A stretch of DNA of 64,000 bases from Terriglobia bacterium (GTDB taxonomy: Bacteria; Acidobacteriota; Terriglobia; JAJPHL01; JAPKYU01): the NCBI GenBank assembly GCA_965206645.1, contig CBDBKE010000002.1, positions 320,001 through 384,000 on the forward strand, written 5' to 3'. The notes under the pieces were generated by a model. The model searched no databases. It was not told the DNA's origin and worked only from the letters and a program-made list of their open reading frames with translations. Numbering within the stretch: the first letter of the stretch is position 1; each line of letters begins with the position of its first letter. Both the position numbers and the translations under genes were made by a program. Below, piece after piece: positions 13,665 to 46,653 of the stretch.

Positions 13665-13692
13665 GATAAACGCTAGCCCGTTAGTAGAGACC
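13665..13692 (-). repeat. dif-like 11-6-11 site A: GGTCTCTACTA ACGGGC TAGCGTTTATC
   Basis: One of four near-identical imperfect palindromes. The repeat is directly seen; a recombination role is inferred. Confidence 0.6.
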
Positions 13693-13916
13693 TACCCTGC
13701 ATTTGCTGGTGACAAGAGGGTTTGCACCAGCAACCCGAGGCGCGCATAGCTCGGCTAAAGTGCTGTGGCTTGACACGGAGGATGAGCGACCGGTCAAATT
13801 GAGGTTTCCAGAGACCGGAACTGCTGGGGATTCAGTGACCCGTCTCTTGAATGATGCTAAAGCCCGCCTGCTCTGCCACCGGGTGAGTAGCCCCCATCAC
13901 GGATGGAGGACGCGGA

Positions 13917-13987
13917 TGCCAACCTATACCGTATGCGTGAACGACAACTTCCATTACATGGATGAGAGGGAGCACGAAAATCGTTGA
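13917..13987 (+). pseudogene. Short N-terminal gene remnant (MPTYTVCVNDNFHYMDE)
   Basis: Strong GGAGGA RBS and a protein-like start, but no continuing frame. Confidence 0.3.
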
Positions 13988-14114
13988 GTGGGAACCGGTA
14001 CTTTGGCTATCCTCTCGTTACGAGTAAGACCAGAACGAAAAGCTCGGTTGAGCGAAGCGGGCTAGCAAGGCTCAGTGCCTTAGGAGAAATTACAGACGAA
14101 AGGAACAAGGGAGC

Positions 14115-14890
14115 ATGTACATCCGGATCATCTTGGCAATGGCAACATTATGCTGCGTAGTGCCTGTAGCCACGTTAGGACGGCAGCTTGATGTGGCCGG
14201 ATCGGCCGATCACGAGGCAATCACGCGCTACAAAGGTTCTGTGTTGCTCTTCTACGACGAGCAGGAGTATGACGCTTACCTGCTTCCACTCGGAAACTGG
14301 ACTCGGGCCAAACGAGGTTTTGAGTCTTCGCGGACGGTCGAGGGTGAAGTCACTCGGCGATCTTATGTCGCCCCCGAAGGCCCCTCGGTTCTGGCGGTTT
14401 ACCGCAACTTCGAAAGGGCGGTTCAGAATAGCGGCCTGAAAATCCTCTATGGCTGCCTCGAGCAGAACTGCGACCGCAGGTTTGCAAGGAGCTTCATTGG
14501 GATGATGCCATACCGGCTCATCCCGAAGGATCACTATCACAACTTTCACGGACTTTCTCAGATGGCGTATATCGCCGGTGAAGGAGAGCACAAGGGGCGA
14601 CCTATATGGGTTTCCATTGGCATAGGCACGGTGACGGTAGCAGGATCCCGTTACAGGGATACAGACAATCGACGTCGCAGATTTGCCACCAACCGGGTTG
14701 TGTTCTTCGTTGATACGGTCGAGGGCGCCGAGATGGCGACGGACATGGTAACCATCTCCCTTGACAAACTGGCTCAGGCGCTAGCGAACGAGGGCAAGAT
14801 GGTTTTAGATGGCATTTTCTTTGATACCGGCAAGGCCGTTGTGAAACCGAAATCCGACGAGGCCCTCGCCATTATCGCGGATTACCTGAA
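14115..14890 (+). pseudogene. 5' part of a DUF4892-like/OmpA-family protein; remainder at 56156-56337 and 54639-54716 (minus strand)
   Basis: Signal peptide, DHEAITRYKGS, GIFFDTGKA; breaks at ADYL|IS. It rejoins in frame through TSD CTGAA to KGNSAMTFFVTGHTD. Confidence 0.88.
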
Positions 14891-16548
14891 CCCGGATTTC
14901 CGTTTTGAAACTCCAAAGCTAACCTTATACTGACCTCTGACGCCAATATTTATGCCGGTTCCAGCGTCAATACAGCTTCCGGAGGTAGAAACCGAGTGGG
15001 TGAGAGGCAAAATCAGCCCTTTCAGTTCTCTTTCAATGCTGCATTGAAGGTCGATTTCCAGGGGTCGCGGGTTACTTCCGACGGCGGCCTGATCCTCGTG
15101 CGCGAATCAGACGAACATTTGGGATTCGGAGAACTCATCAAACAGCACTTGGCCGATCCTCGGAGAAAGAACACACGGTTGCCCTTTGCTGACCTCCTGC
15201 GCCAGTCCGTGTACAGCCGCTTGGCGGGTTACGAAGATATGAATGACGCGGAACGGCTCTCTCAAGATCCGACGTTCCGGCTGATCGGTTCAGAAAAGAT
15301 CTGGGAGCGAGGAGCCGCGTTGACTTCCCGGCTGCAATCGTTCGAGACAGAACTACTGACGCAAGATGAGAACCTGGCTGGTTTGGCAGCGATCAACCGG
15401 GATTTAATCGCCAGGGCGGAAGCTATGGATTCCCCGCAACGGGTGGTGCTGGACATGGACTCGACCGAGATTCCGGTCTACGGCCAGCAGGAGCAGAGTG
15501 CCTACAACGGGCATTTCGAGTCGAGCTGCTATCACCCGTTGTTGCTGTTCAATCGCGAGGGTGACTGTCTGGCGGCCAAGCTGCGACCGGGCAACGTGCA
15601 CAGCGCCGAGGACTGGAAAGAACTTCTCCTGCCGGAGATCGAGCGGCAGCAGCAGCTGGGCAAGGAAGTGGTGTTTCGTGCCGACGCGGCCTTTGCCAAG
15701 CCGGAGATTTACGAGGCTCTGGAGGAGCGGGAGGTAAAGTACGCCATCCGCATCCCGGCTAACGACAGCCTACAGCGGGACATTGAGGAGTTGCTGACTC
15801 GGCCGGTGGGGAGACCCAGCAAGAAGCCGTTGGTGGAGTTCAAGGGCTTTCTATACCAAGCGGCCAGTTGGAAGACAGCCCGCAGGGTGGTGGCCAAGGT
15901 GGAGCATCATCCAGGGGAGCTGTTCCCGCGAGTAGGGTTTATCGTTACGAACTTGACTCTGCCAAGTCGGGCGGTGATGCGGTTTTACAACAAGCGGGGG
16001 ACAGCGGAGCAGTGGATCAAAGAAGGAAAGCAAGCAGTGAAGATGACGCGGCTCAGTTGTCACCGGTTCCGGTCGAACGAGGTCCGGCTGTGGCTCACCA
16101 TCATTGCCTATAATCTCGGCAACCTGTGGCGGCGACTGGTGCTGCCACAGAGAATCGGGAACTGGTCCCTGACGAGCTTGCAACAGCGGTTGGTGAAAAC
16201 GGGAGGACGGCTGGTGAAACATGCGCGATATTACTGGCTTTTGCTGGCCGAAGGGCACTTGAGCCGGAGGCTGTTCAGCAGCATGCTGCGAACGATCTCG
16301 GCACTGCCGCTGCCAGACGGCTAGCGAACCGGGAGAGAGGGTAATTTTAGGTGCTCAGAAGTGGTCGGGCCGGATAAGTGTCAGCGGCGCGGCAGGCTGG
16401 GCAGGCGAACCCCGCACAGCGACTCCGAAGAACAGCCAAAATGTGCCGCACTACCACCTCAAAGAGGCCAGAGCTGTTTGCGGTTGACACGACAGGGTAC
16501 GAGGCATAGCTTTTCGGGTGAAGAGGAAGCTCGAAATGGAAATTCCGG
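14891..16548 (+). mobile_element. IS1380-family copy 2 (type B, 1658 bp); transposase 14996-16324
   Basis: Same terminal motifs as copy 1. Its flanks CTGAA and ATGAG do not match each other but match sites near copy 4. Confidence 0.92.
16484..16512 (+). promoter_or_regulatory. Putative outward-facing sigma70 promoter inside the IS1380 right end
   Basis: TTGACA-17 bp-TAGCTT (TAGGTT in type A copies), 36 bp inside the IRR. Confidence 0.45.
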
Positions 16549-16595
16549 ATGAGTCCTATTCGCAGTTGCAGGACTTGCGCTTGAGGAGGATGTCG

Positions 16596-19500
16596 GTGAC
16601 TCTGAAACCCCTGAGCACCTCTCTGATCATCGCGCTCATACTGAGCGCGGCGGCGCGAGCAGAGGTGAGCTTCAATCGCGACGTCCGCCCAATCATGTCG
16701 GACACCTGCTTCCGTTGTCACGGTCCGGACGAGAATGCCCGCATGGCGGGTCTGCGGCTTGACATCCGGAAAGAAGCTCTGCGGTCCACCAAGTCCGGCC
16801 GCATTCCCATTGTTCCCGGCAAGCCGGAAGCGAGCGAGATTGTCAAACGCATCTTTTCGGATGACCCCAGGGTCATGATGCCACCGGCTTTCGCCGACAA
16901 GGAACTGACCGAGAGCCAGAAGGAAACCATTCGGCAGTGGGTGGCCGAAGGGGCGAAGTACGAGGGGCATTGGAGCTTCCAGCCCGTCCGGCGGCCGGCA
17001 GTGCCGGAGGTTGCGGAAAGAGGAGCCGCCATTCGCAATCCGATCGATTCGTTCATTCAGAATCGTCTGGCGAAGGAGGGATTGCAGCCGTCCCCCGAGG
17101 CGGATCGGCGGACGCTGATTCGGCGGGTCGCGCTAGACCTCACAGGTCTGCCGCCCACGCCTGCCGAGGTGGAAGCGTTTCTCAAGGACACATCGCCCAA
17201 TGCCTACGAAAAGCTGGTCGAGAAGCTGCTGGCTTCTCCGCGTTATGCGGAAAAGCAGGCGATGCATTGGCTCGACGCGGTCCGCTATGCAGACACGCGC
17301 GGGTTCCATGGGGATAACGACCAGCCGGCGTGGCCCTATCGAGATTACGTGTTGCGGGCGTTTCTCGACAACAAGCCGTTCGATCAATTCACACGGGAGC
17401 AGATTGCGGGAGATCTCTTGCCGGATGCCACCGTGCAGCAGCGAGTTGCCTCAGCATATAACCGCATCCTTCGCACCTCGCGGGAGGGCGGCCTCCAGGA
17501 AAAGGAGTACCTGGCCAAGTACGCCTCCGACCGCGTGCGGACAACGTCCAGCGTCTGGCTCGGTCTGACAATGGGCTGCGCGGAGTGCCACGACCACAAA
17601 TTCGATCCGGTGAAGACGAAGGACTTCTATTCGATGAAAGCCTTCTTCGCCGACATCAAAGAGAAGGGTCTTCTACCCGGTTCCGGCCCGGAAGCCTGGA
17701 TTGCAACCCTGTCGTTGCCAACCCCAAAGCAGCGTACGCGATTAGCCGAGCTGAATGAAGCGGTCAAGGCGGCCGAGCAGGCGCTCCAGGAAAAGACGGC
17801 GAGCCTGGCACCACAGCAGGCGGAATGGGAACAGCAACTGTTGGCTGACTTTGAAGCAGGCCGGCTAGAGTGGCGCTATCAGCGACCCTTCTCGGCTAGC
17901 TCCAGCAATGGCGCGCACCTCACCATCTACGACGACGAGCTCGTCGAACGCACCTTCCATGTCGACGCGAAGGCGACGCTGGTCACACAACGAGAGCCCG
18001 GAAATGGTCTGGTGGTGGTCAGCGGACCGAATCCGGACAACGAGACTTACACGATCAGCTTCAAGCCAGGGCTCGGTACATGGACGGCGCTCGGGGTGCA
18101 GGCAATCCAGGATGAAAGTCTGCCTGGCAAGCGGCTGGGGCGAGGCGCGGATCGCTTAGTCCTGACCGAGGTCGAGGCCGCATTGTCGGCCAATGGGAAG
18201 ACGCCAGAGCGGAAACTCTCGTTCGTTCTGGCGACCACCCGCGGATCTAGAGGACCCCTGGAGCAGCCGCCAATGGCCGCCATTGACGGCGACCCGGCCA
18301 GCGGTTGGGCTGGCGATTCGGGAAGTCCAGTCGACGAGGGCAGGAGCCCGTTTCTCGCGCTCCGTTTCGCTGAGCCTGTCAAGACGGACGCAACCTCGGT
18401 GATCACGGTCCGTCTCCGGCACGATTTCTCGCTTCGCCGTGCAACGATCGGCCGGCTGCGCCTTGCGCTCTCCTCCGGCCGATACTCCTGGCCGCTGGAT
18501 GATTTAGATACCGCAGAGGATGACCCAGAAGTTAGCGAGCGGCGCTCCAGTAAAGGTGGCGCAGGTGATGGTATGCCCAGCGAGGTGCTGGAGGCCCTCA
18601 AAGTTGCCCCCGAGGCGAGGTGCGACAACCATCTCAAGGCCCTCAGGGAGCATTTCCAATGGTCCTCTCCCGGGCTGCAGCCGCTTTTTGTCCAGCTGGA
18701 ACGCCTGAAAGCTGCCCGGGCTTTGCTGGAAACTGAGATTCCCACGGTGATGGTTACCGAAGCGACCAAACCACGGGAAACCCGCGTTCTCCCACGAGCG
18801 AACTGGATGGATGAGTCGGGCGAGATTGTGCAACCGTTGATTCCCGGCTTCCTCGGCCAAATGGAAACCAACGGCCGCCGAGCGAATCGTCTGGATCTGG
18901 CAAACTGGATTGGCTCCCGTAAGAACCCAATGACGGCGCGGGCGTTCGTCAATCGCCTATGGCGGCAGTTCTTCGGCATGGGGTTGTCCAAGGTGCTCGA
19001 CGATCTGGGCTCGCAGGGCGAGTGGCCAACACACCTTGAGCTGCTCGACTGGCTCGCCGCCGAGTTCATGGGGCCGAGTTGGAGGGCAGACGGCACACAC
19101 CCCTGGGATGTGAAGCACGTTATCCGGACGATTGTTACGAGCCACACCTATCGTCAGTCCTCCATGAGCAGCCCCCAATTCGACGAGCGAGACCCAGGCA
19201 ACCGGCTTCTGGCGCGCCAGAGCCGCTTCCGGGTAGATGCGGAAGTCGTCCGCGACGTCGCGCTGGCTGTGTCCGGTTTGTTGGTCGAAAAGTTCGGCGG
19301 CCCAAGCGTCCGACCGTATCAACCGGAAGGCTACTTAACGGCGATGAATTTCCCCATGCGCGCATACTCGGCAAGCCATGGCGAAAACCTGTACCGTCGA
19401 GGCGTCTATACTCATTGGCAGCGGACGTTCTTGCATCCCAGCTTGTTGACCTTTGATGCGCCTTCGCGTGAGGAGTGCACGGTGAGCCGGATGAGTTCCA

Positions 19501-19850
19501 ACACGCCGTTGCAGGCATTGATCCTCCTGAATGATCCCGTCTTCGTCGAAGCCGCGCGGGTGTTTGCGCAGAACATCCTGAAGAAAGGAGGTCCCACGCT
19601 CGATGCGCGCATCGGCTGGGCCTTCCTACAAGCCCTCAGCCGGAAGACGACTCCTGCCGAGCGAAAAATCCTCGCCGACCTACACAAGAAGAGCCTGGCG
19701 GAGTTTACTGCGCATCCGCAGAAGGCGCGAGAATTCGTTCGTGTGGGAGAATCGCCACTGGCGACGGATGTAAGACCAACCGACCTGGCGGCGATGACAA
19801 CCGTGGCGCGGGCGATCCTGAACCTCCATGAGACCATTACGAGGAACTAG
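16596..19850 (+). CDS. PSD1/planctomycete cytochrome c domain protein (DUF1549 + DUF1553)
   Basis: Signal peptide, FNRDVRPIMSDTCFRCHG, WLDAVRYADT, CAECHDHKFDP, THLELLDWLA and NTPLQALILLN motifs. GTG start follows GGAGG; the ORF-track N-terminus is IS-derived. Confidence 0.92.
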   Translation: MTLKPLSTSLIIALILSAAARAEVSFNRDVRPIMSDTCFRCHGPDENARMAGLRLDIRKEALRSTKSGRIPIVPGKPEASEIVKRIFSDDPRVMMPPAFADKELTESQKETIRQWVAEGAKYEGHWSFQPVRRPAVPEVAERGAAIRNPIDSFIQNRLAKEGLQPSPEADRRTLIRRVALDLTGLPPTPAEVEAFLKDTSPNAYEKLVEKLLASPRYAEKQAMHWLDAVRYADTRGFHGDNDQPAWPYRDYVLRAFLDNKPFDQFTREQIAGDLLPDATVQQRVASAYNRILRTSREGGLQEKEYLAKYASDRVRTTSSVWLGLTMGCAECHDHKFDPVKTKDFYSMKAFFADIKEKGLLPGSGPEAWIATLSLPTPKQRTRLAELNEAVKAAEQALQEKTASLAPQQAEWEQQLLADFEAGRLEWRYQRPFSASSSNGAHLTIYDDELVERTFHVDAKATLVTQREPGNGLVVVSGPNPDNETYTISFKPGLGTWTALGVQAIQDESLPGKRLGRGADRLVLTEVEAALSANGKTPERKLSFVLATTRGSRGPLEQPPMAAIDGDPASGWAGDSGSPVDEGRSPFLALRFAEPVKTDATSVITVRLRHDFSLRRATIGRLRLALSSGRYSWPLDDLDTAEDDPEVSERRSSKGGAGDGMPSEVLEALKVAPEARCDNHLKALREHFQWSSPGLQPLFVQLERLKAARALLETEIPTVMVTEATKPRETRVLPRANWMDESGEIVQPLIPGFLGQMETNGRRANRLDLANWIGSRKNPMTARAFVNRLWRQFFGMGLSKVLDDLGSQGEWPTHLELLDWLAAEFMGPSWRADGTHPWDVKHVIRTIVTSHTYRQSSMSSPQFDERDPGNRLLARQSRFRVDAEVVRDVALAVSGLLVEKFGGPSVRPYQPEGYLTAMNFPMRAYSASHGENLYRRGVYTHWQRTFLHPSLLTFDAPSREECTVSRMSSNTPLQALILLNDPVFVEAARVFAQNILKKGGPTLDARIGWAFLQALSRKTTPAERKILADLHKKSLAEFTAHPQKAREFVRVGESPLATDVRPTDLAAMTTVARAILNLHETITRN

Positions 19851-19860
19851 GGAGACTCCG

Positions 19861-21520: not shown

Positions 21521-21547
21521 CTTGTAGCCTAAGTTATCATCCAGCTG

Positions 21548-21590: not shown

Positions 21591-21632
21591 CCGCGCGATT
21601 GATCTGAGCGGAAGCAGACGGAGTACGGAATT

Positions 21633-29813: not shown

Positions 29814-29900
29814 GCGGAAGTGGCGGAACGGCAGACGCAGCGGACTCAAAATCCGCCGCCCCTCGCGGGCATGAGGGTTCAAATCCCTCCTTCCGCACCA
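29814..29900 (+). tRNA. tRNA-Leu (CAA)
   Basis: GCGGAAG/CTTCCGC acceptor stem + ACCA; anticodon arm GCGGA-CTCAAAA-TCCGC; long variable arm; GGTTCAAATCC T arm. Confidence 0.97.
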
Positions 29901-29925
29901 TCTTTCTCTCTTTCTTTTCATTGAA

Positions 29926-31047
29926 TTACTGCCAGTTTTTCTCGTGTCCCCCAGATATCCCCGAGTACACGGCCTGCAACAGAGCATTGATGCGTTCCTG
30001 CCGAGCCTGTGACCACTTGGCGTAATGCTTCCGCGCAACGTGCTCACCGATGCCAAGCACATCGGCAACATCCGCCATCGAGCCACCGCGTGCCAAAATG
30101 TCGGTGGCAAGAGTATGCCTGAAACGATGGGCGTGGGCGCCTTCTACCTTGGCCTTCTCGAACACAGCACCAAGTAGCCGTTCTGCAATGCCTCGGGCCG
30201 AGCTTTTCTTCCCCGACCCACTCCAGAAGAAATATCCGCTGTCCACCTGGCTACCGTTCTCGCGCATCGGGAAGGGTAGGGCATCCAGTGCGTTTTTCAG
30301 TTCCACGGGAATCGGCAACGTCACGTGACCCTTGGTTTTTTGGGTGAACAGTTGTATCTGCCAGCCGCGCCGGCCATCTGGTCTAATGCGGTCCTTGTCC
30401 AGCGTGACTGCATACATAATCCTCAGTCCGGTAAACCTGAGCAAAAGCACCAAAGTCCGCGCACGAAGCCGCTCATAGGAATTCTGGCCGATGGCGTCAC
30501 AGCTCGCTAGCATCTCTGCCGCCTGTTGCGGCGTGTACGGGACAACCTCTTTTGGTTGCGCCTTCGGTGTTTTGATTTTTCTCGCGTAGTTTTCTTTCGC
30601 CCACCCGCGCTCAAAACAGAAGGAGAAGAACTGCCGAAGTGTTTGCAGCTCTTTCGCTGCCGGCATGCGTGACACCTTCCGACCGACGCGAAAGGCATCC
30701 AGTTGCTCCAACCCAAGGGCGCTGACTGTCTCAATGCCGTTCCGCTCGCAGAAGTCACGGAGCTGACGCATCAGGCGCTTGTACTTGAGCAGGCTTGGTT
30801 CCTGCACGCTCAGTTGTGATTCCCAAGCAGCGATAGCTTCGGCAACGAGTTTCTGGGGTTTCGCGTCAGGGTCCTCGATTTGGGCGAGCTTGCGGATAGC
30901 CCGTTGCCAATCTCTCAGCTTCAGCGAAACGCGAAACTGGCGTCCATTGCGATCGCCGTCTGCCCAAATGGGGCAGTTGCAGCCGGTGTACTTGCGGCCT
31001 TTCTTCCGGTGTGAACAATTCTTCCTGTGGCGTCGGTAGAGATTCAT
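29926..31047 (-). CDS. Tyrosine recombinase/integrase
   Basis: TGLR, TQKT, HAHRFRHT and KHYAKW motifs; AGGAGG RBS before MNLYRRH; ends 25 bp from the tRNA. Confidence 0.92.
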   Translation of the reverse strand: MNLYRRHRKNCSHRKKGRKYTGCNCPIWADGDRNGRQFRVSLKLRDWQRAIRKLAQIEDPDAKPQKLVAEAIAAWESQLSVQEPSLLKYKRLMRQLRDFCERNGIETVSALGLEQLDAFRVGRKVSRMPAAKELQTLRQFFSFCFERGWAKENYARKIKTPKAQPKEVVPYTPQQAAEMLASCDAIGQNSYERLRARTLVLLLRFTGLRIMYAVTLDKDRIRPDGRRGWQIQLFTQKTKGHVTLPIPVELKNALDALPFPMRENGSQVDSGYFFWSGSGKKSSARGIAERLLGAVFEKAKVEGAHAHRFRHTLATDILARGGSMADVADVLGIGEHVARKHYAKWSQARQERINALLQAVYSGISGGHEKNWQ

Positions 31048-31072
31048 GGTGCCTCCTGGTCGGCGCATTCTA

Positions 31073-31306
31073 CTACCGGCACCTCCGTTCGTACACTCGC
31101 TGAGCTACGGATTCTGGGATCCGTAGGGTGATGTGGTCCCGCTTGCTTCTCCGGCCTTCCTGCCCGATCTTCAGCACGCCAGGCTCGTCCCGGAAAATGT
31201 CCCGTATGGTGCGCGAGTTCAGCACCCACACCTTGGCCAGTTCTTGCGGGCTGAAATGCCGCTCAAACGCGCTTGGGAGTGTTCCGGGTTGGAGGTTGTG
31301 GTTCAA
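31073..31306 (-). CDS. Excisionase-like HTH protein
   Basis: FSPQELAKVW...RTIRDIF...LRIPES; sits directly upstream of the integrase. Confidence 0.65.
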   Translation of the reverse strand: MNHNLQPGTLPSAFERHFSPQELAKVWVLNSRTIRDIFRDEPGVLKIGQEGRRSKRDHITLRIPESVAQRVYERRCR

Positions 31307-31361
31307 AGGTCAGTCCCTACGGGCCATTCCGTTCCTCATGGCTCTTTCGTACTCGCTCCCT

Positions 31362-31853
31362 TCACGTGTTCGAGGTGTTTAATTGCTCTGATTCCGGTGG
31401 GGACGACCCAGGAGCCGTCCCCGGCCCTTCCCATTGAAAATTCGCCTCTGAACGACCCTCTCCCAAGTGATTCCAGCGATTCTGGAGGGCCGTCGCCCTC
31501 ATCCTAGCCAACTGCTCCCGTTGCTTCGGGGAGGCAGTACGACGGGGCCTCACTCCCGCCAGCTTCAGAACCGTTTTTACCTGAGCGGGGTTCAGCGGAT
31601 CGAACAGCGCCGATCCCTCTCCATCCGCGTCCTGCCAGATTTCGCACCCCACTGCTTTCCACCTCCGGCGGATGCTGTTCCACCTCCTCGGCGTCAGGTT
31701 CAAGAACATCACCCCGAGACGCTCGTCTCCGTGTTCGTACAGGTGGCCAAAGCGCCCATGCACGACCGGATCCCCTCACTCGTCGTGGCGCGTTTTGAGG
31801 TTGTGGTGCTTCGCGAACTCGCGAATCGTCGCCTCTTCTTGCCCACTTCTCAC
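31362..31853 (-). pseudogene. Element hypothetical protein with in-frame TGA at 31776-31778
   Basis: GTG start overlaps the upstream stop (GTGA); the frame reads ...LKTRHDE*GDPVVHGRFGHLYEHG into ORF 31362-31763. Confidence 0.5.
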
Positions 31854-33055
31854 TGTCTTCTTGCACCTCTGTTAAAAGCATCCGCAGGCGTTTGGTAACT
31901 CGGCCTCACCTCCGGGATGAAGCCACCTTCCTCAAGCCGCAAGGAAAACTTTGACTCTTCGGCAAAGCGATTCTTGAGGCAGCGTAAATCCACAGCGCGC
32001 CGGTCCTGCTCGCGGCGCTCCACGCGCCAGGCCATATCGGCGTCGGCCAAAAGCTCGGACGATCCCCTGTACTCCGGCGAGTTGGGCTTGTCGCTCTTGT
32101 GCGCAATGACCAGCACGGTTCCGCCGGCGTTCACCAATTCTCGGAAGGCGGCGGTCACGCGGGCCATGTCCTCGGCGCTATTTTCGGCACCGCGAAAGAA
32201 TCTGACCAGTGAGTCAAAGATTACCAGCGGGCGATGCTTGGCGCAGAAATCGAGAAGCCGACGGTCCCATATCGACGCTGGTTTCTCCTGGAGCCACTGC
32301 CCCCAGTAGTGCAGGCCCTGCGGATTGCCCGCTTGCAAATATTTCTTGCGGCGGTTAACAACCGCCTCTGGATTCTCCCGGTTCAGCACCAGCGCTCGCG
32401 TTCTTGCTGTCCGCTTCTGCGCGAAAGCGGCTCCCTGCGAAACCCGGACTGCCAAATCTATCTGCAGCCAAGACTTGAGACTCCCGCGCGCACCAACTAC
32501 TAGCGCGAGCGACTGGCGCGGGATGAAATCTTCTACCAGGTACTCCAGCGGAACGTCGCGGACTGAATCTAGTCCTGGAACTTGCTCAAGGTCAGTGAAC
32601 GTGGCGGCGTGACTGTTCTCAGCCAGGGTATTTCCGTGGTCCCGCAGGTCATCTAGTAGGGCTTCGGAGCCTTCGCTGTCGAGGGCTCGGTTTTCGATTG
32701 CGCGGCAGGTGCGGATGATTTTCCGCAGGCGCGATTTTTCGCTGACAATCGCGGCATAGTGCTCGATGTTTACTGACCGTGGAAGACCCTCGGTCAAGCT
32801 CGGCAATAGGCTTACTAGGCGGTGGGCGTTGTCTGCAATCAGCCGTTCGGTCAGTGTCACCGGGTCGATAGGCTCGCCGTCTTCCCTCATCGCAGCCATA
32901 TGCCGCCAAAGCATCGCGTGGTCCGCAACGGTGAAATCTGCAGGCTGCAAGAACACAGTGGCCATCGCGGCGTTGTCCTGCAGCACGGCCCCGAGCACGG
33001 CGCATTCGGCATCGACGTTTACGGGCAGGCCCCTTGTTAAGATCGCGTCGCTCAT
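31850..33055 (-). CDS. DnaB N-terminal domain + RepA/AAA_25-like helicase
   Basis: LPVNVDAECAVLGAVL DnaB-N; Walker A-like GARGSLKS; VIFDSL; IAH...YRGSS. Confidence 0.8.
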   Translation of the reverse strand: MSDAILTRGLPVNVDAECAVLGAVLQDNAAMATVFLQPADFTVADHAMLWRHMAAMREDGEPIDPVTLTERLIADNAHRLVSLLPSLTEGLPRSVNIEHYAAIVSEKSRLRKIIRTCRAIENRALDSEGSEALLDDLRDHGNTLAENSHAATFTDLEQVPGLDSVRDVPLEYLVEDFIPRQSLALVVGARGSLKSWLQIDLAVRVSQGAAFAQKRTARTRALVLNRENPEAVVNRRKKYLQAGNPQGLHYWGQWLQEKPASIWDRRLLDFCAKHRPLVIFDSLVRFFRGAENSAEDMARVTAAFRELVNAGGTVLVIAHKSDKPNSPEYRGSSELLADADMAWRVERREQDRRAVDLRCLKNRFAEESKFSLRLEEGGFIPEVRPSYQTPADAFNRGARRQ

Positions 33056-33900
33056 CCCTCCCCCATCCATTTTTCCATCCGCTCTGCGGACCCAAAGACG
33101 TGCTGTAAGTCGGCATGGACCTTGGCCCGGTCATTCTGGCCCATGTGGAACGGGCTTCTCCGGATGGCGTCAACGCACCTGCACATTGCTTCGGTTGCTG
33201 CAGCCATCAGGGTAGGGCCTTTCAGGTCAGGATTCAGGTTCCGTCCAATTTCGATTGCTTCTCTTGCCCTGGCTTTGAGCATCTGCCGCCGCTTGTCAGT
33301 GAATCGGTACAAAGCTGCGTTCTTCCCCATTACCGTGAGGTAGTGTTGGTAGACCCTGCTGGTGATGTGGTGGTAAGCAGTCTCCGGGGGCGAATCCCCG
33401 AGAGCCGGCGAAGGAGCCTCCTTGGCGACTTCGCCAACGGTGTTAGTATTTCTTCTGTTTCCGTTTCCTTCTCTTTCTTGATAGGAGGAGTTGTCCTCGC
33501 GTGTCTCCCCGCGGGTGCCCTTACCGTTCTCCTCGCGCTTTTCATAGACGGGAGTGCGGTAATCCGTTGTTTTCTCAGTGTTCAGTAACCATCCGCTCCT
33601 CGCCCCCTTGCTGGCGAGGTACTTATTGATGAGAATTGGGTAACTTCCGTGGCGTCCTGGGATCGTGAACCGCTTGATGTAGCCGTCCCTTTCCAGGCTT
33701 TCTAGAACGTCGCGTGCATACCTCTCTTGATAGCCGTATCGAGCCGCCAGTCCTTTCGCGCTGGACCACACAATGCCGGTTTCGCAATCGGCTTCCAAAA
33801 TCAGGTGGGCGTAGGTGGCAAAATGCAAAGGCGGCAGTTTTCCTTGAACACAGTGATTGAGAATGCCCCGGCGCAGTTGGACGTAACCGCTCCAATTCAC
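33052..33900 (-). CDS. Putative phage-type replication initiator protein
   Basis: N-terminal GYVQLRR plus winged-HTH-like segment, charged linker, overlapping the helicase gene. Confidence 0.55.
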   Translation of the reverse strand: MNWSGYVQLRRGILNHCVQGKLPPLHFATYAHLILEADCETGIVWSSAKGLAARYGYQERYARDVLESLERDGYIKRFTIPGRHGSYPILINKYLASKGARSGWLLNTEKTTDYRTPVYEKREENGKGTRGETREDNSSYQEREGNGNRRNTNTVGEVAKEAPSPALGDSPPETAYHHITSRVYQHYLTVMGKNAALYRFTDKRRQMLKARAREAIEIGRNLNPDLKGPTLMAAATEAMCRCVDAIRRSPFHMGQNDRAKVHADLQHVFGSAERMEKWMGEG

Positions 33901-36969: not shown

Positions 36970-37050
36970 CTCCTGAAAGCGGCTCCTGAAAGAAAATGCC
37001 CGGCAACCGGCTCAGGATTCCGGTGTTCGAGAGCTACCCTAGCCGGGCTT
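36970..37050 (-). ncRNA. Putative C4/CI-like antisense RNA structure with two adjacent targets
   Basis: Outer stem GCCCGGC/GCCGGGC; inner stem ACCGG/CCGGT whose loop (AATCCTGAG on the minus strand) is complementary to two TCAGGA copies overlapping the RBS. Confidence 0.5.
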
Positions 37051-38364: not shown

Positions 38365-38479
38365 ATACTGCAACCCGGTTCTTGTACGGGTTATTCTGGG
38401 CTCCGCGGGTGCGCAGGGCACCCACCGCAGGGTGGGTACCCCTCTTGCGCTTGTGCATTGTAGGGGGGCCTGTGCGCGA

Positions 38480-39729
38480 TGACCTGACCGGCACTTTTTG
38501 TACCAAGTGGAAAGAGAGAGAATCCACTTGAGGAGGAAGTGAGGTCATGCCGACAAGGAGTTACAAGCCGGAGCAGATTGTAGCGGTGCTACGGCAGATA
38601 GAAGTGCAGATGGGGAACGGGAAGACTGCGCCCCAAGCCTGCAAAGAAGCTGGAATCCACACCCAAACCTACTACCGGTGGCGGAAGGAATACGGCGGGC
38701 TGAAGGTGGTGCAGGCAAAACGGCTGAAGGAGTTGGAGAAGGAAAACACGCGGCTGAAGCGGTTGGTAGCGGAGCTTTCTCTGGAGAAGCAGGTGCTGCG
38801 GGATGTGGCACAGGGAAACTTCTGAGCCCTGAGCGGCGGCGTTGTGCGGTGGAGCGTGCGTGGGAGCAACACGGGTTGTCGGAACGGCATGCCTGCCGGC
38901 TGCTGGAGCAATGGCGAGGGACACAACGATACGAGCCGATTCATCGGGTGGACGAGGATGCTCTGACCCGAGCGATCATTGCCCTGGGAGCGAAGTACGG
39001 GCGATATGGCTACCGGAGGATCACAGCGTTGCTGCGGAGTGCGGGCTGGGAAGTGGGCAAGGACCGGGTGCAGCGGATTTGGCGGCGGGAAGGGCTGAAA
39101 GTGCCGCAAAAACAAAGGCCGCGAGGACGGCTGTGGCTGAACGACGGTTCCTGTGTACGACTGAGGCCGGAGCGACCGAACCACGTGTGGAGCTACGACT
39201 TCATGAGTGCCAGAACGCACGAGGGGAGAACGCTGCGGCTGCTGACCTTGCTGGATGAGTACACGCGGGAATGCCTGGCGATCCGGGTGGAGCGGAGGAT
39301 GGGCAGCCAACAAATCATTGAGGCGTTGTCGGACGTGATGTTGTGGCGAGGGATACCGGAACAGATTCGATCCGACAATGGTCCCGAGTTCATCGCCAAA
39401 CAACTGCGCCAGTGGTTGGCAAATCTAGGGACCGGGACACTGTACATCGAACCGGGCAGTCCCTGGGAGAACGGGTACTGCGAGAGTTTCAATGGGAAGC
39501 TGCGGGACGAATGCCTGAATGGAGAGATCTTCTACTCGTTGAAGGAGGCACAGGTGGTGATTGAACAGTGGAGGGTGCAATACAACACGGTGCGGCCGCA
39601 CTCGGCGCTCGGCTATAGGCCCCCGGCGCCGGGGGCCTATAGCCCTCCCCTGCCACTGAAACCAGTTTCACAGCCCCAGGCTGCGATGTGAACTCTCACT
39701 ACGGTTGGTACAAAAAATCGGTCTGGTCA
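38480..39729 (+). mobile_element. IS3-family element, intact copy of 3284-4603; orfA 38547-38825, orfB to 39691
   Basis: Same IRs; GGGAAAC slippery heptamer at 38813-38819; no TSD (GCGA/GGTG). Confidence 0.92.
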
Positions 39730-39837
39730 GGTGACGCTCTGAGCGGCCGAGTGAGGTCGTGATCGTGTCTCGGCTGCCACCATCGCGGTTCAACAAGCGC
39801 TTTCAGGCTACCTCCTTGTCGGCCGCAATACCGGATG

Positions 39838-39865
39838 GGTCTGCACTAACGGGCTAGTGTTTACC
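39838..39865 (+). repeat. dif-like 11-6-11 site B: GGTCTGCACTA ACGGGC TAGTGTTTACC
   Basis: Same spacer as site A; arms match E. coli dif at 7/11 and 6/11 positions. Confidence 0.6.
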
Positions 39866-40254: not shown

Positions 40255-40363
40255 CACAACCCAAAAAACGCAGTTGGGCACTCCGTCTTTTGTGGCGAAC
40301 ATGTTCTGCCAGGCTGACGAGATAGTGGGCCTGGTCGGGTCCCTACCTTGAGCGAGGAGAGAT

Positions 40364-41659
40364 ATGAAACGAAGAGACTGGCTTCGATGTGTCGCTGGGG
40401 GAGTTGTGTCCCAGCTGGTCTGCCCGGAGGTGAGCCGCGCCGCGCCCGAGCCTCTGCCGTGGCCTCAAAAGGACGGCGATCTGACAATCACGAGTGTCCG
40501 CCTGGTCAAAGTGCGGCCCAAACGCCCCGTCCCAACCTATACGCCGGACCCCAACTCCTGGATCGCGCGGGTACGACAAGGTACAGAAGAAATCGCCAGC
40601 CCGATGTCGATCTATCCCAAATACAAGCCGTCTCGTTCTTTGTTTGGGCCGGACGATGAGCGGCTGGGGCGAGTGTGGGTCGAGATCGGCACCAACCAAG
40701 GGGTGACCGGGCTGGCTCCGGGAGGTCCCGGAGGCGGACCCATCATCGGGGGTCACCTGGTGAAACTTCTGCTTGGAGAAAACCCGCTCAACGTTGAGCG
40801 GCTGTGGGATATCCTGTGGCGCTCGACGATGTCCTACGGTCGCAAGGGAGCCGTTCTGCACGCGATCAGCGGGGTGGACCTAGCCCTCTGGGACCTCGCC
40901 GGGAAGGTTTGGGGACTGCCTGTTTACAAACTTCTCGGTGGTGAGACGAAAGCCCGCATCCCGGCCTACTGCACGGGGAATGATATCGAGCAGCATGTCG
41001 AGTTCGGATATACGAAGCTCAAGCTGGCGCTGCCGCATGGTCCGGTGGACGGCAAAGAGGGGATTCGCAAGAACGTGGCGCTGGTGAAGCGTGCCAGGGA
41101 GGCGGTTGGACGCGCCGGCGAAGTCATGATGGACTGCTGGATGGCGCTGACCGAGCGGTATACGCTCGAATTGGCCGAAGCGTTCGAGCCCTATCGGGTC
41201 TATTGGTTGGAGGAGTGCTTGCCCCCTCACGACTACGAAGGAATGGGGCGGCTGCGGAAGCTGATTCGCTCCACGCGCCTCGTCACAGGTGAGCACGAAT
41301 ATACGCGGTATGGATTTCGGCAACTGCTCGAACACGATGCCGCCGATATCTGGCAGCCGGACGTACATTGGTGCGGAGGGTTGACCGAGCTACGGCGGAT
41401 CGGGGCGCTGGCTGCGGCCTACGACATTCCGGTCATCCCCCACAGCGGCGGTCAACGTGACTCGGCGCACTACATCACGGCGACGCCGAACACCCCGTGG
41501 GCGGAGTTCTCCCGAGGAGGGATGCCACCGCCCGGTGGCCCAGCGGTGGTCTATGAGCGCTACGAAGAGGACAACCTGTTGAGCCGCGGTCCCGAAGGCA
41601 TCTATACGCGTCCCTCGGACGAACCCGGGTTTGGGTGGGATCTGGAGGTTGCGAGCTAA
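40364..41659 (+). CDS. Mandelate racemase/enolase-superfamily sugar-acid dehydratase (L-rhamnonate dehydratase-like) with Tat-like signal
   Basis: AISGVDLALWDL, KLK, MMDCW, WLEE, TGEHE, QPDVHWCGG and IPH motifs; N-terminal KRRDWL. Confidence 0.85.
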   Translation: MKRRDWLRCVAGGVVSQLVCPEVSRAAPEPLPWPQKDGDLTITSVRLVKVRPKRPVPTYTPDPNSWIARVRQGTEEIASPMSIYPKYKPSRSLFGPDDERLGRVWVEIGTNQGVTGLAPGGPGGGPIIGGHLVKLLLGENPLNVERLWDILWRSTMSYGRKGAVLHAISGVDLALWDLAGKVWGLPVYKLLGGETKARIPAYCTGNDIEQHVEFGYTKLKLALPHGPVDGKEGIRKNVALVKRAREAVGRAGEVMMDCWMALTERYTLELAEAFEPYRVYWLEECLPPHDYEGMGRLRKLIRSTRLVTGEHEYTRYGFRQLLEHDAADIWQPDVHWCGGLTELRRIGALAAAYDIPVIPHSGGQRDSAHYITATPNTPWAEFSRGGMPPPGGPAVVYERYEEDNLLSRGPEGIYTRPSDEPGFGWDLEVAS

Positions 41660-41928
41660 CCCCCAGCCAAACTGCTCTCTGAGAATAGCGGAGGTGCAGG
41701 TTGAAAGAGGGAACATGGAAGCGTAACGCGGTGTTCGCAGTCTGTATGGCCGTCGTTAAGGCAGCGCTAGCCCCCTCGAGCGCGTGTTCCTCCGGAAGCC
41801 GGAAACTCCGCCCCTGCGCAGGAACGTTTCAGCAAAGAAAAACCGGGACGGGCACACACAGCGACACACCCGGGAGATGAACAATAAGTGAATAGTCCTG
41901 GACTGTATTCTTCTTCAGGAGGGATCTG

Positions 41929-43286
41929 ATGAGCAACGACCCGAAACAGCATTTCCATGACCGTACTCACCAGAACTCGTGGGCATCTGGAGTTTCACGC
42001 CGCAAGCTCTTCCAGGCTGGGGTGGCTTTCACCCCGCTGAGCCTGATTGGGTCCTCAGGCAAGGACCCGCTTCTGGCCCAAGCACCCGGTGGTGCGCCGC
42101 TGGGGGTGGTCGGGGAGCCGCGCTCGGATTCCACAATCTGGAAGTCGCTTCGGCAGCACGCTGCGGGCATGTCTCCGCAAGCCGTGCGCGACTTGCAGAA
42201 TCCGGAGATCCCGTTAGAAAAGCGTTGGAAGGACCTCGCTCCTTATTGGCCGTTCACGCGGACGACGGGCTACGGTCGCTGCATGCTGATCGCGGCGCGT
42301 GATCTGTTTGGCGTTGAAGATATTAACGCGCAGACCTATCGCCTGTTATCCGAGCGGATCTCGGCGGCGAACCGCTTCGGGTGGTACGAGACCGTATTGA
42401 AGGACAGAGCCCGCATCGAAAGCTGCGTGCTCGATGACTTGACTACCCAGCGTGGGGAGCCGCTCAAGCCCGACCCTAGGTTCTTCAAGATCGTGACGCG
42501 CTTCGATTATATCGTCACTGCCGACAGCAGAGATGATCTGACGCATATCGAGAAAGTCACTGGGGTGGCTGTTCACACGCTGGCCGATCTTGAGAAAGCG
42601 CTGGAAAAGGCAGTGGACAAGGGATTACGCGAGGGATTGGCGGGGATCAAGACGGCCCTCGCCTATGAACGCACCATCCAATTCGATAAAGTATCCCGAG
42701 CTGATGCCGAACGCTGCTTTGCTTCCCTTTCCCACCCGTCTTCTTCGCGGCCGCAGGAGCCGGCGGCGCGCAAGCCGCTCGAAGATTTTCTGTTGCACAA
42801 GGTCATCCAGCAGGCCGCTGAGCACCACCTGCCCGTTCAGATCCACACTGGCATGCAGAACGGAAACCGTAACCACGTCGCCTGGACGCGTCCATCGCAC
42901 CTCAGCGAACTGCTAAACGAATACCGTCAGGTCCGATTCGACCTGTTCCACGGGGGATATCCCTACGGCAGTGAATTCGCCACCTTGGCCAAGAATCTAC
43001 CCAACGTCTACCCCGACCTCTGCTGGCTGCACATCATCGCGCCCGGAGTGGCGAAGAGGAGCTTGCGCGAGTTGATCGAGACCGTACCCGCCAGCAAGAT
43101 CTTGGGATTCGGCGGGGACTTTAAGCACGTGGAGGGGCCTACGCCCACGCGCAAATGGCTCGCGCCATCACCGCTGAAGTACTGGCCGAGAAGGTGGAGG
43201 ATGGCTACCTCAAAGAAGAGGAAGCGGCGGTGCTGATGGAGAGAATCCTCTACCGGAACGGTAGGGAGTTGTTTGCCTCGCGATGA
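41929..43286 (+). pseudogene. Amidohydrolase-family protein, frameshifted near 43138 and apparently lacking the N-terminal HxH
   Basis: SRRKLF Tat motif; QIHTG, LFHGGYP, DLCW and FGGD motifs; the C-terminus continues in another frame (YAHAQMARA...ILYRNGRELF). Confidence 0.75.
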
Positions 43287-43463
43287 GGTGAAGGGCAAGC
43301 GGATGTAACACCAAACTCGCGGGCGCTTTTAGGACTCGCTCCCTTGGCTCGGGGGTATCGGCATTCCTGCGCTGGACGGATTCTCTGCTGCGCTGTGTTC
43401 CACGCGAGCGCGGTCTACCGCGATTACCGCACGGGAGGGAGTCTCAAGCTTACGGCGGAAGGT

Positions 43464-43949
43464 TCACGCGGCCTGTCCGCCCGGACGGGAAGCACTCCGG
43501 ATGGCTAAAGGCAAGCGGTGTCTATTAACCACTGCTCCGATAACGAGCAGCACCAATGATGTGGCGGCTACAGTCCAGCCAAATGGCAGGCCGGGAAGCC
43601 TTGACGTTGCCTCCGAGCCGGCGGCCATAAGCAATCCCAGGCAAGACCAGCTCATGAATTACGCATGGTGTGACACCCGCGTGCCGCGCGGTTGCTTCCG
43701 ACAGGCGGGAACGAACCCAGCAGCAACGGTGGCCAAACTCAGTAGGGCGAACCAATGAAATGTACCAAATCCGCCGAACAGGTCGTAAATCATAAGCGCA
43801 GTTGCATTGAGTCCAACCATGCAGGGGAAATAGGTCCGCACCAACAAGCGGTGCCGTCGAGTTCCTTTGCGGCGGGACACAACGCTGGCGCCGGAGAGTG
43901 TCGTCGCCCCCAAACCCAAACCGGTCTGAACGAGCCCCAGAATGTCCAT
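43464..43949 (-). pseudogene. DUF2306-like membrane protein with in-frame TAA at 43659-43661
   Basis: RKGTRRHR...FHWFALLS...HHA*FMSWS; the two ORFs share one frame. Confidence 0.65.
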
Positions 43950-44153
43950 AGCGCCTGTGTCCTCTGTATTCAACCTAGCACAGGCTATACGAACAAACCT
44001 CTTTTCTAATGCGCGCCCGAAGAGGTAACAGCACCCGCAGGCGGGTCGACGCGGCAACCAGGCCAGGCGCGGGATGACCTCAGGCGGCGCGGTTTGGTGG
44101 GGTGAAGCGAGGTCTGGATTTGGTTGGAGCGCTCCGGTCCAGCCGGAACTAGG

Positions 44154-44411
44154 CTACTCGGCTTTCTGCCTGAGACCGAACCAATTCCCCCCGGGTCCAG
44201 GAAAATGGCAAACGGCCCCCAGGGCATGTGTTTCGGCGGCTGAGTAAATGTGACCCCTCGCGAAGACATCTCCTGATGCTTCGCTTCGATGTCCTCGCAC
44301 GCGAATACGACAGAAGGTTTTCGTTCTGACCAGTCCGTCATCATCGACTTGGGGTAGATAACCAAACACGACTCGGCACCCTCCAGCCCTACCTCCAGCC
44401 ACCTCGCCTCA
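44154..44411 (-). pseudogene. VOC/glyoxalase family fragment, 5'-truncated and frameshifted
   Basis: RWLEV...VFACEDI...GVTFTQPPKHMPWG...FLDP/GNWFGL. Confidence 0.75.
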
Positions 44412-44554
44412 GACTCTGCGCGTCCCTACATTAACCCCTTGGCTTCGCCACTGATCCCCCGGTGGCGTAGCCCGTGTGAGTGTCTATCTCGTGGTGGAGT
44501 CGGCTCGTGTGGGTCCTGAGACCTGCAGCTCTCGGAGTTCTTCCTGGGAGGATT

Positions 44555-44582
44555 AGTAAACACTAGCCGACTAGTGGAGACC
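44555..44582 (-). repeat. dif-like 11-6-11 site C: GGTCTCCACTA GTCGGC TAGTGTTTACT
   Basis: 60 bp past the stop of the dehydrogenase gene; direct repeat of site D. Confidence 0.6.
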
Positions 44583-44642
44583 TATCCACTAAATCCGAGG
44601 CAAGCGTCTTGTACTCAAAGACCTGGACTGAGGCGAAGCGGG

Positions 44643-46526
44643 CTACTGTATGGCGATGGTGACGGTGTTCGAGGTGGCGCCGCCTATGCTGAGCACGACC
44701 GGCACGTTATCGCCGGGGGGCGCGTTTGCAGGCACCTGGACGTCAACTTGGTAAAGCCCTACGAATCCGGGAGCTAGCCCAGAGAAGCTCACGGTTGCCG
44801 CCACACCGCCAATGGTCACGGTGGGAGTCGTGGTCGTCCCGGGCAGCGAATTGATCGAGGCCGCATCGCCAGTCGCTGGTTGGTTCGTCACCGGCCCCAG
44901 GCCGGTGCAGAAGGTCGAAACAAACTCTCCTCGCATGGCTGGTCGGGAGCCGGAGAACATTCCCACCGGTGCAGCTACAGACGCCGTATTGGCAATCAAG
45001 ATGGCACCTTGACCGCTACCCGCCGCGTTGGCAGCAAACAGCCCAGGCTCGAAGGGTGCCAGATCTATTGTCTGCGGACTGCTCGCTGCCGTCCCGGCGG
45101 TAACGCTCAGCGACGCCTGCGCCTGTCCCTGCAGTTGCCAAGGAATTTGGAAGTTGATCTGAGTAGGGGAGACGAGGAACAACGGTACCGCAATGCCATT
45201 GAGTCGCAACGTGGTGTGGAAGATCGTGGTAGGCGGTGCTTCAACAGAAGCGCCGGTCGCAGGGGCGAGGTTGGTGCCGAATACGGACGCGATGCTGCCA
45301 GGCGCCACCGCAGCCCCGGATGCAAAGCTAGCTCCGTTGACCACGCCACCCTCGTTCACGGCAGGCTGGGGTGCGTCGGGATCGACAATCCGCCGCACAC
45401 TGCCCTTGTAATCCACCACGTAGACTTCGCCACTTTCGTCTTCCCCGAACGAGCTGATGGATAGGCCGGTGCTCAACACTTGTTCTCTCTGCCACTGTCC
45501 AAGGGGAATCTCCGTCAGAGCCCAAAGGCGGCCCGAAATGAAATCGGCGAACAGGTACTTTCCCCAAAGAGAAGGAGCGGAAGGCCCCCGGTAGACGTAA
45601 CCGCCTGTGACTGACCTTCCAAGATCTCGACCGTATTCGTGGATGGGCGGAATCAGGCCGGATGTGTTGCAGTCGCTAGGTGGTAAGAAACACAGTGTGC
45701 CCTCCATGATATTCCAGCCATAGTTGCCTCCTTTAACGATGATGTCGATTTCCTCGAGGCGATTCTGGCCTACATCTCCGGCCATCAGCCGGCCCGTCAC
45801 CCGGTCGAAGGAAAAACGCCAGGGATTGCGCAGGCCGTAGGCCCAGATCTCATTGCGGCCAGGCTTTCCCACGAACGGGTTGTCCTGAGGTGCGGCGAAA
45901 GGACTGCCGGAATCGACATCGATCCGCAGGATTTTGCCCAGGAGTGCTTCGAGATTCTGACCGTTGCCCTGCGGGTCGCCACCCGATCCGCCATCGCCGG
46001 TTCCAATGTAAAGAAATCCGTCCGGGCCGAACGCCAGCATCCCGCCGTTGTGGTTAGAAAAGGGTTGCCGGAAGCTAAGCAGAATCTCCTCCGACCCCTT
46101 TACCGCCAGATTCACGTTTTCCGGCGAGACGGCATATTCGGCAACCACCGTCTCCAGTCCGTTCGCTCCGTCCCGAGTGTAGTTGACAAAAAAGCGGCCA
46201 TTAGTCGGATAGCTGGGATGGAAAGCCAATCCCAGCAGGCCCCGTTCGCCCCCGGACCGAACCCGATCCGAGATTTCCAGAAAGGGCGTAGCCAGGAGGG
46301 CGTCCCCGGAGAGGATCCGTATGCGGCCGCCTTGTTCGACAATAAACAGTCGGTCACTGCCGTCACCGGCTGTGGTGACGTAAAGGGGCGACGAAAGACC
46401 ACTGGTAATCGTTTCGAGTTCGCCGGCGGCTCTAGCATCCCCGGTAAGGATTACAAAAACGGCCGCCAGCAGTAGAAACCGAAGTCGCCACCGAAGGTAG
46501 AAGAGATTTTCAGATTTCCAGGCCAC
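44643..46526 (-). CDS. PQQ-dependent sugar dehydrogenase (GSDH beta-propeller) fused to TIGR03437-type C-terminal domain
   Basis: ERGLLGLAFHP, NHNGG, GKILRID, YGLRNPWR and GGNYGW motifs, then GVVNGASF...GLYQV. Start uncertain (46526-46610). Confidence 0.88.
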   Translation of the reverse strand: MAWKSENLFYLRWRLRFLLLAAVFVILTGDARAAGELETITSGLSSPLYVTTAGDGSDRLFIVEQGGRIRILSGDALLATPFLEISDRVRSGGERGLLGLAFHPSYPTNGRFFVNYTRDGANGLETVVAEYAVSPENVNLAVKGSEEILLSFRQPFSNHNGGMLAFGPDGFLYIGTGDGGSGGDPQGNGQNLEALLGKILRIDVDSGSPFAAPQDNPFVGKPGRNEIWAYGLRNPWRFSFDRVTGRLMAGDVGQNRLEEIDIIVKGGNYGWNIMEGTLCFLPPSDCNTSGLIPPIHEYGRDLGRSVTGGYVYRGPSAPSLWGKYLFADFISGRLWALTEIPLGQWQREQVLSTGLSISSFGEDESGEVYVVDYKGSVRRIVDPDAPQPAVNEGGVVNGASFASGAAVAPGSIASVFGTNLAPATGASVEAPPTTIFHTTLRLNGIAVPLFLVSPTQINFQIPWQLQGQAQASLSVTAGTAASSPQTIDLAPFEPGLFAANAAGSGQGAILIANTASVAAPVGMFSGSRPAMRGEFVSTFCTGLGPVTNQPATGDAASINSLPGTTTTPTVTIGGVAATVSFSGLAPGFVGLYQVDVQVPANAPPGDNVPVVLSIGGATSNTVTIAIQ

Positions 46527-46625
46527 GTTCCCCACCTCTAGAGTATAGGTCGGCCCCGTTAAGTCGGAATTTCCGAAATTAAGCCTCCTCTTTTCGAGTT
46601 GGTCGCACACCCCGCTAGCTAGATA

Positions 46626-46653
46626 AGTAAACGCTAACCGACTAGTGGAGACC
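46626..46653 (-). repeat. dif-like 11-6-11 site D: GGTCTCCACTA GTCGGT TAGCGTTTACT
   Basis: 26/28 identical to site C; lies upstream of the dehydrogenase gene. Confidence 0.6.

Follow-up and report, generated by a model that had tools for sequence, protein, structure and literature searches.

Genes in Acinetobacter can be carried in pdif modules, in which they are bracketed by inverted 28-nt XerC/XerD sites of 11-6-11 architecture with asymmetric arms. The insertion sequence (IS) IS1 produces target duplications of 8–9 bp, carries inverted repeats that start with GGT, and forms circles in which a few bases separate the two ends. Four 28-nt sites in a 64,000-nucleotide stretch of a Terriglobia bacterium genome (assembly GCA_965206645.1, contig CBDBKE010000002.1, positions 320,001 to 384,000; hereafter the window) recall the pdif arrangement, and a preliminary description had read them as re-coded Xer sites of a gene-cassette system. 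Our comparison of this genome with its relatives favors another reading, to which we assign a probability of about 0.68. The sites (cores A to D) would be an inner module that recurs in the long, mosaic arms at the ends of genus-restricted, non-autonomous, cargo-carrying transposable elements that resemble mobile insertion cassettes (MICs), are related to IS1, and move by DDE-type transposition and not through a tyrosine recombinase acting at the 28-mers. Short terminal sequences (tips), and not the cores, bound the elements, which have 8-bp duplications, are present or absent among congeners, and mostly have no transposase of their own.

Cargo-carrying non-autonomous elements are already known elsewhere. 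MICs are described as passenger genes held between IS-type ends and moved in trans (PMC4337579). MIC231 of Bacillus cereus and the TnXax1-related MICs of Xanthomonas share with the present elements target duplications as long as those of the related IS, together with a presumed movement in trans. The present elements agree with MICs and with miniature inverted-repeat transposable elements (MITEs) in having terminal repeats that match a transposase-encoding IS (the 16-nt tip of the 4.6-kb element in Table 1), an 8-bp duplication as in the related IS, passenger genes in place of a cognate transposase, and presence or absence with an intact empty site at three loci, with bridging metagenome contigs at one of them. 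They differ from MICs in that their ends are related to the IS1 family and not to IS231/IS4 or Tn3, their arms are long (100–200 nt) and mosaic with different classes of internal palindrome on the left and the right, and their cargo consists mostly of single ordinary chromosomal genes. With the IS1 family and its MITE derivatives, the tip-sharing IS elements found here share a transposase match to DDE_Tnp_IS1 above the Pfam cut-off, GGT-initial repeats and 8-bp duplications. However, they are ~2.1 kb long with extra open reading frames (ORFs) and score below the cut-off of the NCBI IS1 model, and the non-autonomous derivatives, unlike IS1 MITEs, hold several kb of cargo in the largest cases. 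The literature searched yielded no account of an IS1-related cargo family of this kind in Planctomycetes.

Distribution and structure of the cores

The 28-nt pattern of the preliminary description matched exactly four places in the window (Table 1), as had been reported, and none across 100 dinucleotide-preserving shuffles of it; a tolerance of three mismatches gained no further window sites. The spacers were paired as described, with ACGGGC in sites A and B, GTCGGC in site C and GTCGGT in site D. All four sites were located outside Pfam-domain-bearing ORFs, according to the ORF listing and Pfam scans of the window. A 655-aa ORF with a GSDH domain has its first possible start codon (GTG) 16 nt downstream of site D, and its stop codon is where the inner module of site C begins. 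This gene is one of three adjacent genes on the minus strand (655, 660 and 660 aa), of which the two 660-aa genes are tandem paralogues with 89% identity over their first 300 nt and no Pfam family.

The sites proved not to be a set private to the window. In the whole genome (G000; 4.41 Mb in four contigs, C1–C4) the same pattern gave 4, 16, 36, 51 and 67 matches at 0, 1, 2, 3 and 4 mismatches, respectively. A motif scan of the genome and its relatives, which the preliminary description had suggested, was carried out in 31 genomes with a refined pattern and up to three mismatches. It yielded 56 cores in G000 and 41, 42 and 9 in the congeners G001, G003 and G002 (62% complete), respectively, whereas a single match was found in genome G017 and none in the remaining 26 genomes. 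A reversed control pattern had no match in any of the 31 genomes. The cores were outside genes and conserved in sequence across three species. The 56 cores fell into two sharply split spacer classes without intermediates, class 1 (ACGGGC-like; 31 cores) and class 2 (GTCGGY-like; 25 cores), and all of them had ACTA or ACAA and TAG at the inner ends of the arms. The short inverted flanks pointed out earlier are real and general; the 28-mer is the middle of a 38-nt imperfect palindrome, GGATAGGT...ACCTATCC, with consistently unequal arms (one has CCCC, the other TTT). Four class-2 cores have ~57 nt inserted exactly in the central spacer, and the ends of the insert extend the palindrome.

Repeated sequence was found on both sides of the cores in the form of alternative modules. 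In 20 of the 56 cores (12 of class 1 and 8 of class 2, site A included), a tip was present 53–69 nt away on the 3' side. The route to it leads from the core through a terminal module of ~45 nt to ...CTGACCCACTACC, or the tip GGTAGTGGGTCAG when the element is read from its outer end inwards; the tips of the family are also given as GGTAGTGGG. Eight cores were in short tail-to-tail doublets, 31–42 nt apart. In the subset of copies listed with their flanks, terminal module 1a accompanied class 1 and module 2a accompanied class 2, so that the two ends of an element are distinguishable. Among 502 pairs of copies aligned in register, 154 shared the tip side alone, 46 the cargo side alone and 36 both sides; the large class sharing only the tip side is a prediction of a transposon family with varied cargo. 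A TAGTGGG box, seen post hoc, is common to core and tip in the same orientation, which suggests a shared binding protein. Our best guess from these sequences is that the core is a predicted protein-binding palindrome marking the inner edge of the arm.

The preliminary description had placed all four sites at the edges of accessory DNA. This holds for site A, where synteny with G003 stops a few bases beyond the arm tip; in G001 the tip and terminal module are kept at this place and divergence sets in within the core. The other three sites, B, C and D, are in a patchwork region, of which only gene-sized blocks recur in congeners. One such block is an enolase-superfamily gene (94–95% identity in G001 and G003), which occurs in different contexts and in G001 is inverted relative to a neighboring core-bearing arm. 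Sites B, C and D are probably cores whose outer arm is missing or replaced, the arm remnants having been reshuffled by the many IS insertions of the region and by recombination.

Table 1. Features of the window and of related loci. Plain coordinates refer to the window; C1–C4 are contigs of G000.
Position	Strand	Feature	Remarks
13611..13630	+	Outer tip of the left-end arm, true element boundary	GGTAGTGGGTCATTTTCCGG; one mismatch to the family tip; tip shared by G001
13611..13664	-	Terminal module ('T-module', type 1a) between tip and core A	Same ~53-nt module also follows class-1 cores at other genomic places
13665..13692	-	Site A, 28-nt core, class 1 (ACGGGC), inner module of the left-end arm	Tip 53 nt past the core
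13693..13740	-	Inner flank module of site A, cargo side	Likeness to other copies reaches up to 48 nt here
39808..39865	+	Site B, class-1 core (39838-39865) and 30-nt inner flank module	Without terminal module and without tip
44455..44652	-	Site C, class-2 core (44555-44582), flanked on either side by repeated modules	Similarity -237/+100; tip not found
46626..46728	-	Site D, class-2 core (46626-46653) and 75-nt inner flank module	Similarity -75/+4; tip side without conserved sequence
14887-16548	+	IS1380-like element (DDE_Tnp_1_4), 1662 bp	Context only, outside the repeat family; inverted repeats begin with CCGGA(A)TTTCC and differ from the family tip
56620-58281		IS1380-like element, second copy	Inverted relative to 14887-16548
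38478-39541		IS3-family element ending ~100 nt left of site B	Identical to the copy at 3542-4605
29814-29897		tRNA gene
29926-31068		Tyrosine integrase gene
31850-33070		DnaB-N/AAA_25 helicase-like gene
36984-37049		int-alpA RNA match
40322-41663		Enolase-superfamily gene
44643-51629	-	Three adjacent genes, 655, 660 and 660 aa
C3:758130-761271		Kinase-carrying element, 3.1 kb, Ser/Thr kinase-TPR gene	Precisely absent in G001, also absent in G003
C2:192569-195446		Element of 2.9 kb, 672-aa protein without Pfam family	Absent in G003
C4:902028-903854		Element with hydrolase gene	Absent in G003; duplication decayed
C2:14857-19500		Element of 4.6 kb with IS1-family transposase	Identical 16-nt tip at both ends; gene split by an IS1380-like insertion
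L060 (G000)		Intact IS1-family element, 2076 bp	Tips GGTAGTGGGCTAC; 285-aa transposase; perfect 8-bp duplication GCCCGCCT
G003		IS1-family element, ~2.1 kb	Tips GGTAGTGGTCT; perfect 8-bp duplication CAATATCC
C2:95601, 436228, 441245, 478005, 496594, 522185, 527706; C3:302467; C4:68621, 1915739, 2128445		Tip-8 bp-tip units
C2:100733, C3:194417 (duplicated at C3:902074), C4:2091862		Cores with ~57-nt spacer insert	Two are the same duplicated locus
C4:708578-711883 (L001); C4:114372-117572 (L002)		Y1-transposase (RAYT-like) genes
L090 (G017), L089 (G106), L091 (G021), G127 C64:52934		Palindrome carriers outside the genus	Four genomes of three other genera

Tip-bounded elements, cargo and candidate mobilizer

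Twelve outward-facing tip pairs, 0.6–8.6 kb apart, were chosen by eye from 61 tip matches in G000, with the tip counted as 9 nt for the duplication test. Their flanking 8-mers were identical at 8, 8, 7, 7, 7, 7, 6, 5, 4, 4, 2 and 1 of 8 positions, and 8-bp duplications with at least 6 of 8 identical positions were thus present in 7 of the 12 pairs (P = 0.006 against a null of random 8-mers with the same spacings). Because the boundaries are 53–69 nt outside the 28-mers, at imperfect terminal inverted repeats with 8-bp duplications, they bear the signature of a DDE transposase.

Units that carry genes together with one ACGGGC-class and one GTCGGY-class site were present or absent among congeners. 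The preliminary description had proposed a search for empty sites; these exist at three loci, where the units are bounded by tips with duplications and not by the 28-mers. At the 3.1-kb kinase element, G001 has a single CAACCCGA, and the left and right flanks in G000 read CAACCCAA and CAACCCGA, respectively. In the case of the 2.9-kb element, which is likewise precisely absent, one GCGCTTGG is present in G003, and G000 has GCGCTCGG and GCGCGCGG. The locus of the hydrolase-gene element has in G001 an identical left tip at the same place with a different interior. Metagenome contigs from two of four runs joined the flanks of the 3.1-kb kinase element with 6 ambiguous letters (contigs only), and the summed metagenomic depth of the arms was many-fold above that of the cargo, as expected of repeats. 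For doublets and tip-less arms no clean empty sites were found in congeners, where the regions were non-syntenic or the breakpoints untidy.

The cargo was scanned with Pfam in 33 ORFs from 16 bracketed loci. No Pfam family was assigned to 16 of these ORFs, and the others included kinase-TPR, hydrolase, aldo-keto reductase, globin, cytochrome P460, beta-propeller, short-chain dehydrogenase and PsiE proteins, among others. The sole transposases in the scanned cargo belonged to nested ISs of other families (three IS1380-like and one IS256-like). The IS1380-like, IS256-like and IS3 elements were rejected as parents of the family, their inverted repeats being unlike the tip. An exception to the transposase-free cargo is the 4.6-kb element with an IS1-family transposase, which has just its terminal 16 nt in common with the cargo family. 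The family tip shares 8–9 nt with the intact IS1-family elements of G000 and G003. Their two transposases scored 35.3 and 30.5 bits against Pfam DDE_Tnp_IS1 (cut-off 24.1, with a short stretch aligned) and 73 and 54 bits against NCBIfam transpos_IS1 (cut-off 100). Since tip and 8-bp duplication are found alike in the cargo elements and in IS1-family elements of the genus, we infer from sequence that an IS1-family DDE transposase may move the cargo elements in trans.

A complete element would thus run from the tip through the terminal module, a class-1 core (ACGGGC) and an inner flank to the cargo gene or genes, and then through a second inner flank, a class-2 core (GTCGGY) and a terminal module to the opposite tip. 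The IS1-family transposase supplied in trans would act at the tips and generate the 8-bp target duplication, and site A would be the inner module of such a left end. The preliminary description had named the end of a larger IS or MITE as the finding that would overturn its proposal, and such an end was found at 20 of the 56 copies, including site A.

Weighing of alternative explanations

Several observations weigh against this reading. The IS1-type tip was found at just one of the four window sites and 20 of the 56 genome copies, and 28 of the 56 cores, including B, C and D, had neither tip nor partner. The core acts as the hinge of the mosaic, being the only region shared by 163 of the 502 in-register pairs, and the sharing classes other than the tip-side one could also mean recombination or independent spread of the core. 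Furthermore, it is absent from about half of the 12 tip pairs and from the IS1-family elements themselves, and is therefore dispensable for movement and only weakly linked to the transposase. Five of the 12 tip pairs lack a convincing duplication, and the bridging metagenome contigs may stem from a congener and not from a polymorphic population. In G000 the transposase gene of the element with the exactly matching tip is broken, and searches of G001 and G003 did not find this transposase, the best match being 39–40% identical. In eleven palindromic units, two tips of a variant peculiar to these units face each other with exactly 8 bp between them (CTGGCGGG or close to it), as many as in the target duplication; the units look like circle or tandem junctions and are not accounted for by simple insertion. 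The extended 38-nt palindrome, with its asymmetry intact, also occurs at 1–3 places in 4 of 197 other-genus genomes of the class, without tips. The three contexts examined there were ordinary intergenic DNA with no recombinase nearby. The palindromes of G017 and G106 share a ~60-nt upstream module, and G017 has two of them as tandem copies.

These points bear in part on the view that the core is an independent palindrome of the repetitive extragenic palindromic (REP) or bacterial interspersed mosaic element (BIME) type, spread by its own mechanism or kept for binding of a host protein or for an RNA or single-stranded DNA hairpin, and caught secondarily in IS1-derived arms. According to PMC3733652, REPs, BIMEs and REPINs with their REP-associated tyrosine transposases (RAYTs) are short imperfect palindromes in high copy between genes, with inverted doublets and mosaics. 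To that extent the cores are alike, as they form a discrete 38-nt high-copy palindrome outside genes, with tail-to-tail doublets like those of REPs and variants whose loop insert of ~57 nt extends the palindrome. The frequent ending of likeness within a few nucleotides of the palindrome on both sides (the 163 pairs above), the 36 of 56 copies without an IS1-type tip, and the low-copy occurrences in ordinary intergenic DNA of four other-genus genomes also fit this view. However, the RAYT-like genes here have other flanking palindromes than the cores, and many cores move in arms with target duplications, differing in this from REPs and REPINs as far as that source describes them. A RAYT was rejected as the mobilizer, as the two Y1_Tnp matches in the genome are each flanked by their own palindromes, which are unrelated to the cores, and no core is within 9 kb of either. 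The predicted hairpins are weak (Z-scores -0.08 to -4.1, with 3 of 8 folds below -2), the frequent ACTA to ACAA variants disrupt the stem without compensation, and no precise insertion or deletion of a lone core was seen among the loci compared. An RNA hairpin or terminator was also rejected on the weak folds and the absence of a U-run. We consider an independent REP-like origin unlikely. A global regulator's operator or promoter element, to which a palindrome with a 6-nt center, conserved across three species and outside genes, would correspond, is hardly credible, since distance and orientation to neighboring ORF starts are not constant, many copies closely follow stop codons or separate convergent genes, and the copies have long repeated flanks and travel with transposon arms. 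No constant neighboring gene of the cores was found when one was looked for.

In a modified form of the preliminary proposal, a site-specific tyrosine recombinase would use the cores as crossover sites, the two spacer classes would be incompatible, and the exchange would re-assort arms and cargo. This view draws on the same inverted 28-nt 11-6-11 bracketing with asymmetric arms as in pdif modules. The asymmetry is kept in distant genomes, the spacer classes are sharply separate (31 and 25 of 56, none between), the modules on either side of the core assort independently, one G000/G001 breakpoint begins inside core A, and the genome has 36 phage-integrase-family matches. Of the claimed 6–7 matches per 11-nt arm to Escherichia coli dif, a hand count at site B gave 7 of 11 and 6 of 11. 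Nevertheless, every clean presence/absence event is bounded by tips with 8-bp duplications; the modules, unlike those of pdif, do not begin or end at the 28-mers but 53–69 nt beyond them. The cores are not enriched near recombinase genes, with 6 of 56 within 5 kb against 3.95 ± 1.9 for random placement (a fraction of 0.19 of the simulations reached as many). All 56 cores lack the inner ATAA/TTAT of Xer sites, and a separate canonical-looking site exists. Moreover, the two ends of an element differ in spacer class and could thus not recombine with each other. Of the proposed Xer-type cassette system, the part that stands is that the sites belong to a trans-driven system that moves modules; the mechanism does not, and we regard tyrosine-recombinase exchange at the cores as very improbable. 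A strict search of the genome with the E. coli dif sequence gave no match. With looser patterns the sole canonical Xer-like site was ATAA-N6-TTATGTCAA at C4:400161 on the minus strand, ~100 kb from the cumulative GC-skew maximum of the contig, a suggestive candidate for the true dif.

A hybrid of DDE transposition and cassette-style recombination would make the 38-nt palindrome a functional site older than the arms, because it is present in four genomes of three other planctomycete genera. In this hybrid it would be the crossover or assembly point, with two incompatible spacer classes, at which arms, cargo and circular (tip, 8 bp, tip) forms are re-assorted. We give this combination only a slim chance.

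Window context and implications

The genes of the window include PSCyt1/PSCyt2/PSD1 and DUF1501 types, which were taken to point to a planctomycete. IS elements crowd it (five IS1380-like, three IS3 and one IS256-like). The two copies of the 1662-bp IS1380-like element are 100% identical and inverted, and bracket ~40 kb that could invert, with site A outside and site B inside the pair; the inversion geometry of the preliminary description is therefore borne out. At least 17 more copies of this element, at a (rounded) identity of 100%, are present elsewhere in the genome, and it has therefore been active recently. IS1380-like and IS3 elements are repeatedly inserted in or beside repeat arms of G000 (for example at C2:509904, C2:518369, C4:68552, C1:159513 and C2:894426), and the arms are either preferred or tolerated IS targets. 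A tRNA gene adjoins the tyrosine integrase gene, which is followed by the helicase-like gene and small ORFs; 29814-33900 together with 36984-37049 is probably an integrated island. An Rfam scan of the window found two tRNAs and the int-alpA RNA, with no others and no match at any of the four sites.

For the biology of the genus, the preferred reading of the cores as inner modules of IS1-related cargo elements would mean that single ordinary genes (kinases, hydrolases and secreted proteins) are packaged between IS1-type ends and moved about the chromosome, and such movement would help to account for the patchwork gene content among congeners. It removes the attractive interpretation as re-coded Xer sites and puts a concrete, testable picture in its place. 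The conserved asymmetric palindrome and the tip-8 bp-tip units could, in addition, inform how such cassettes are assembled.

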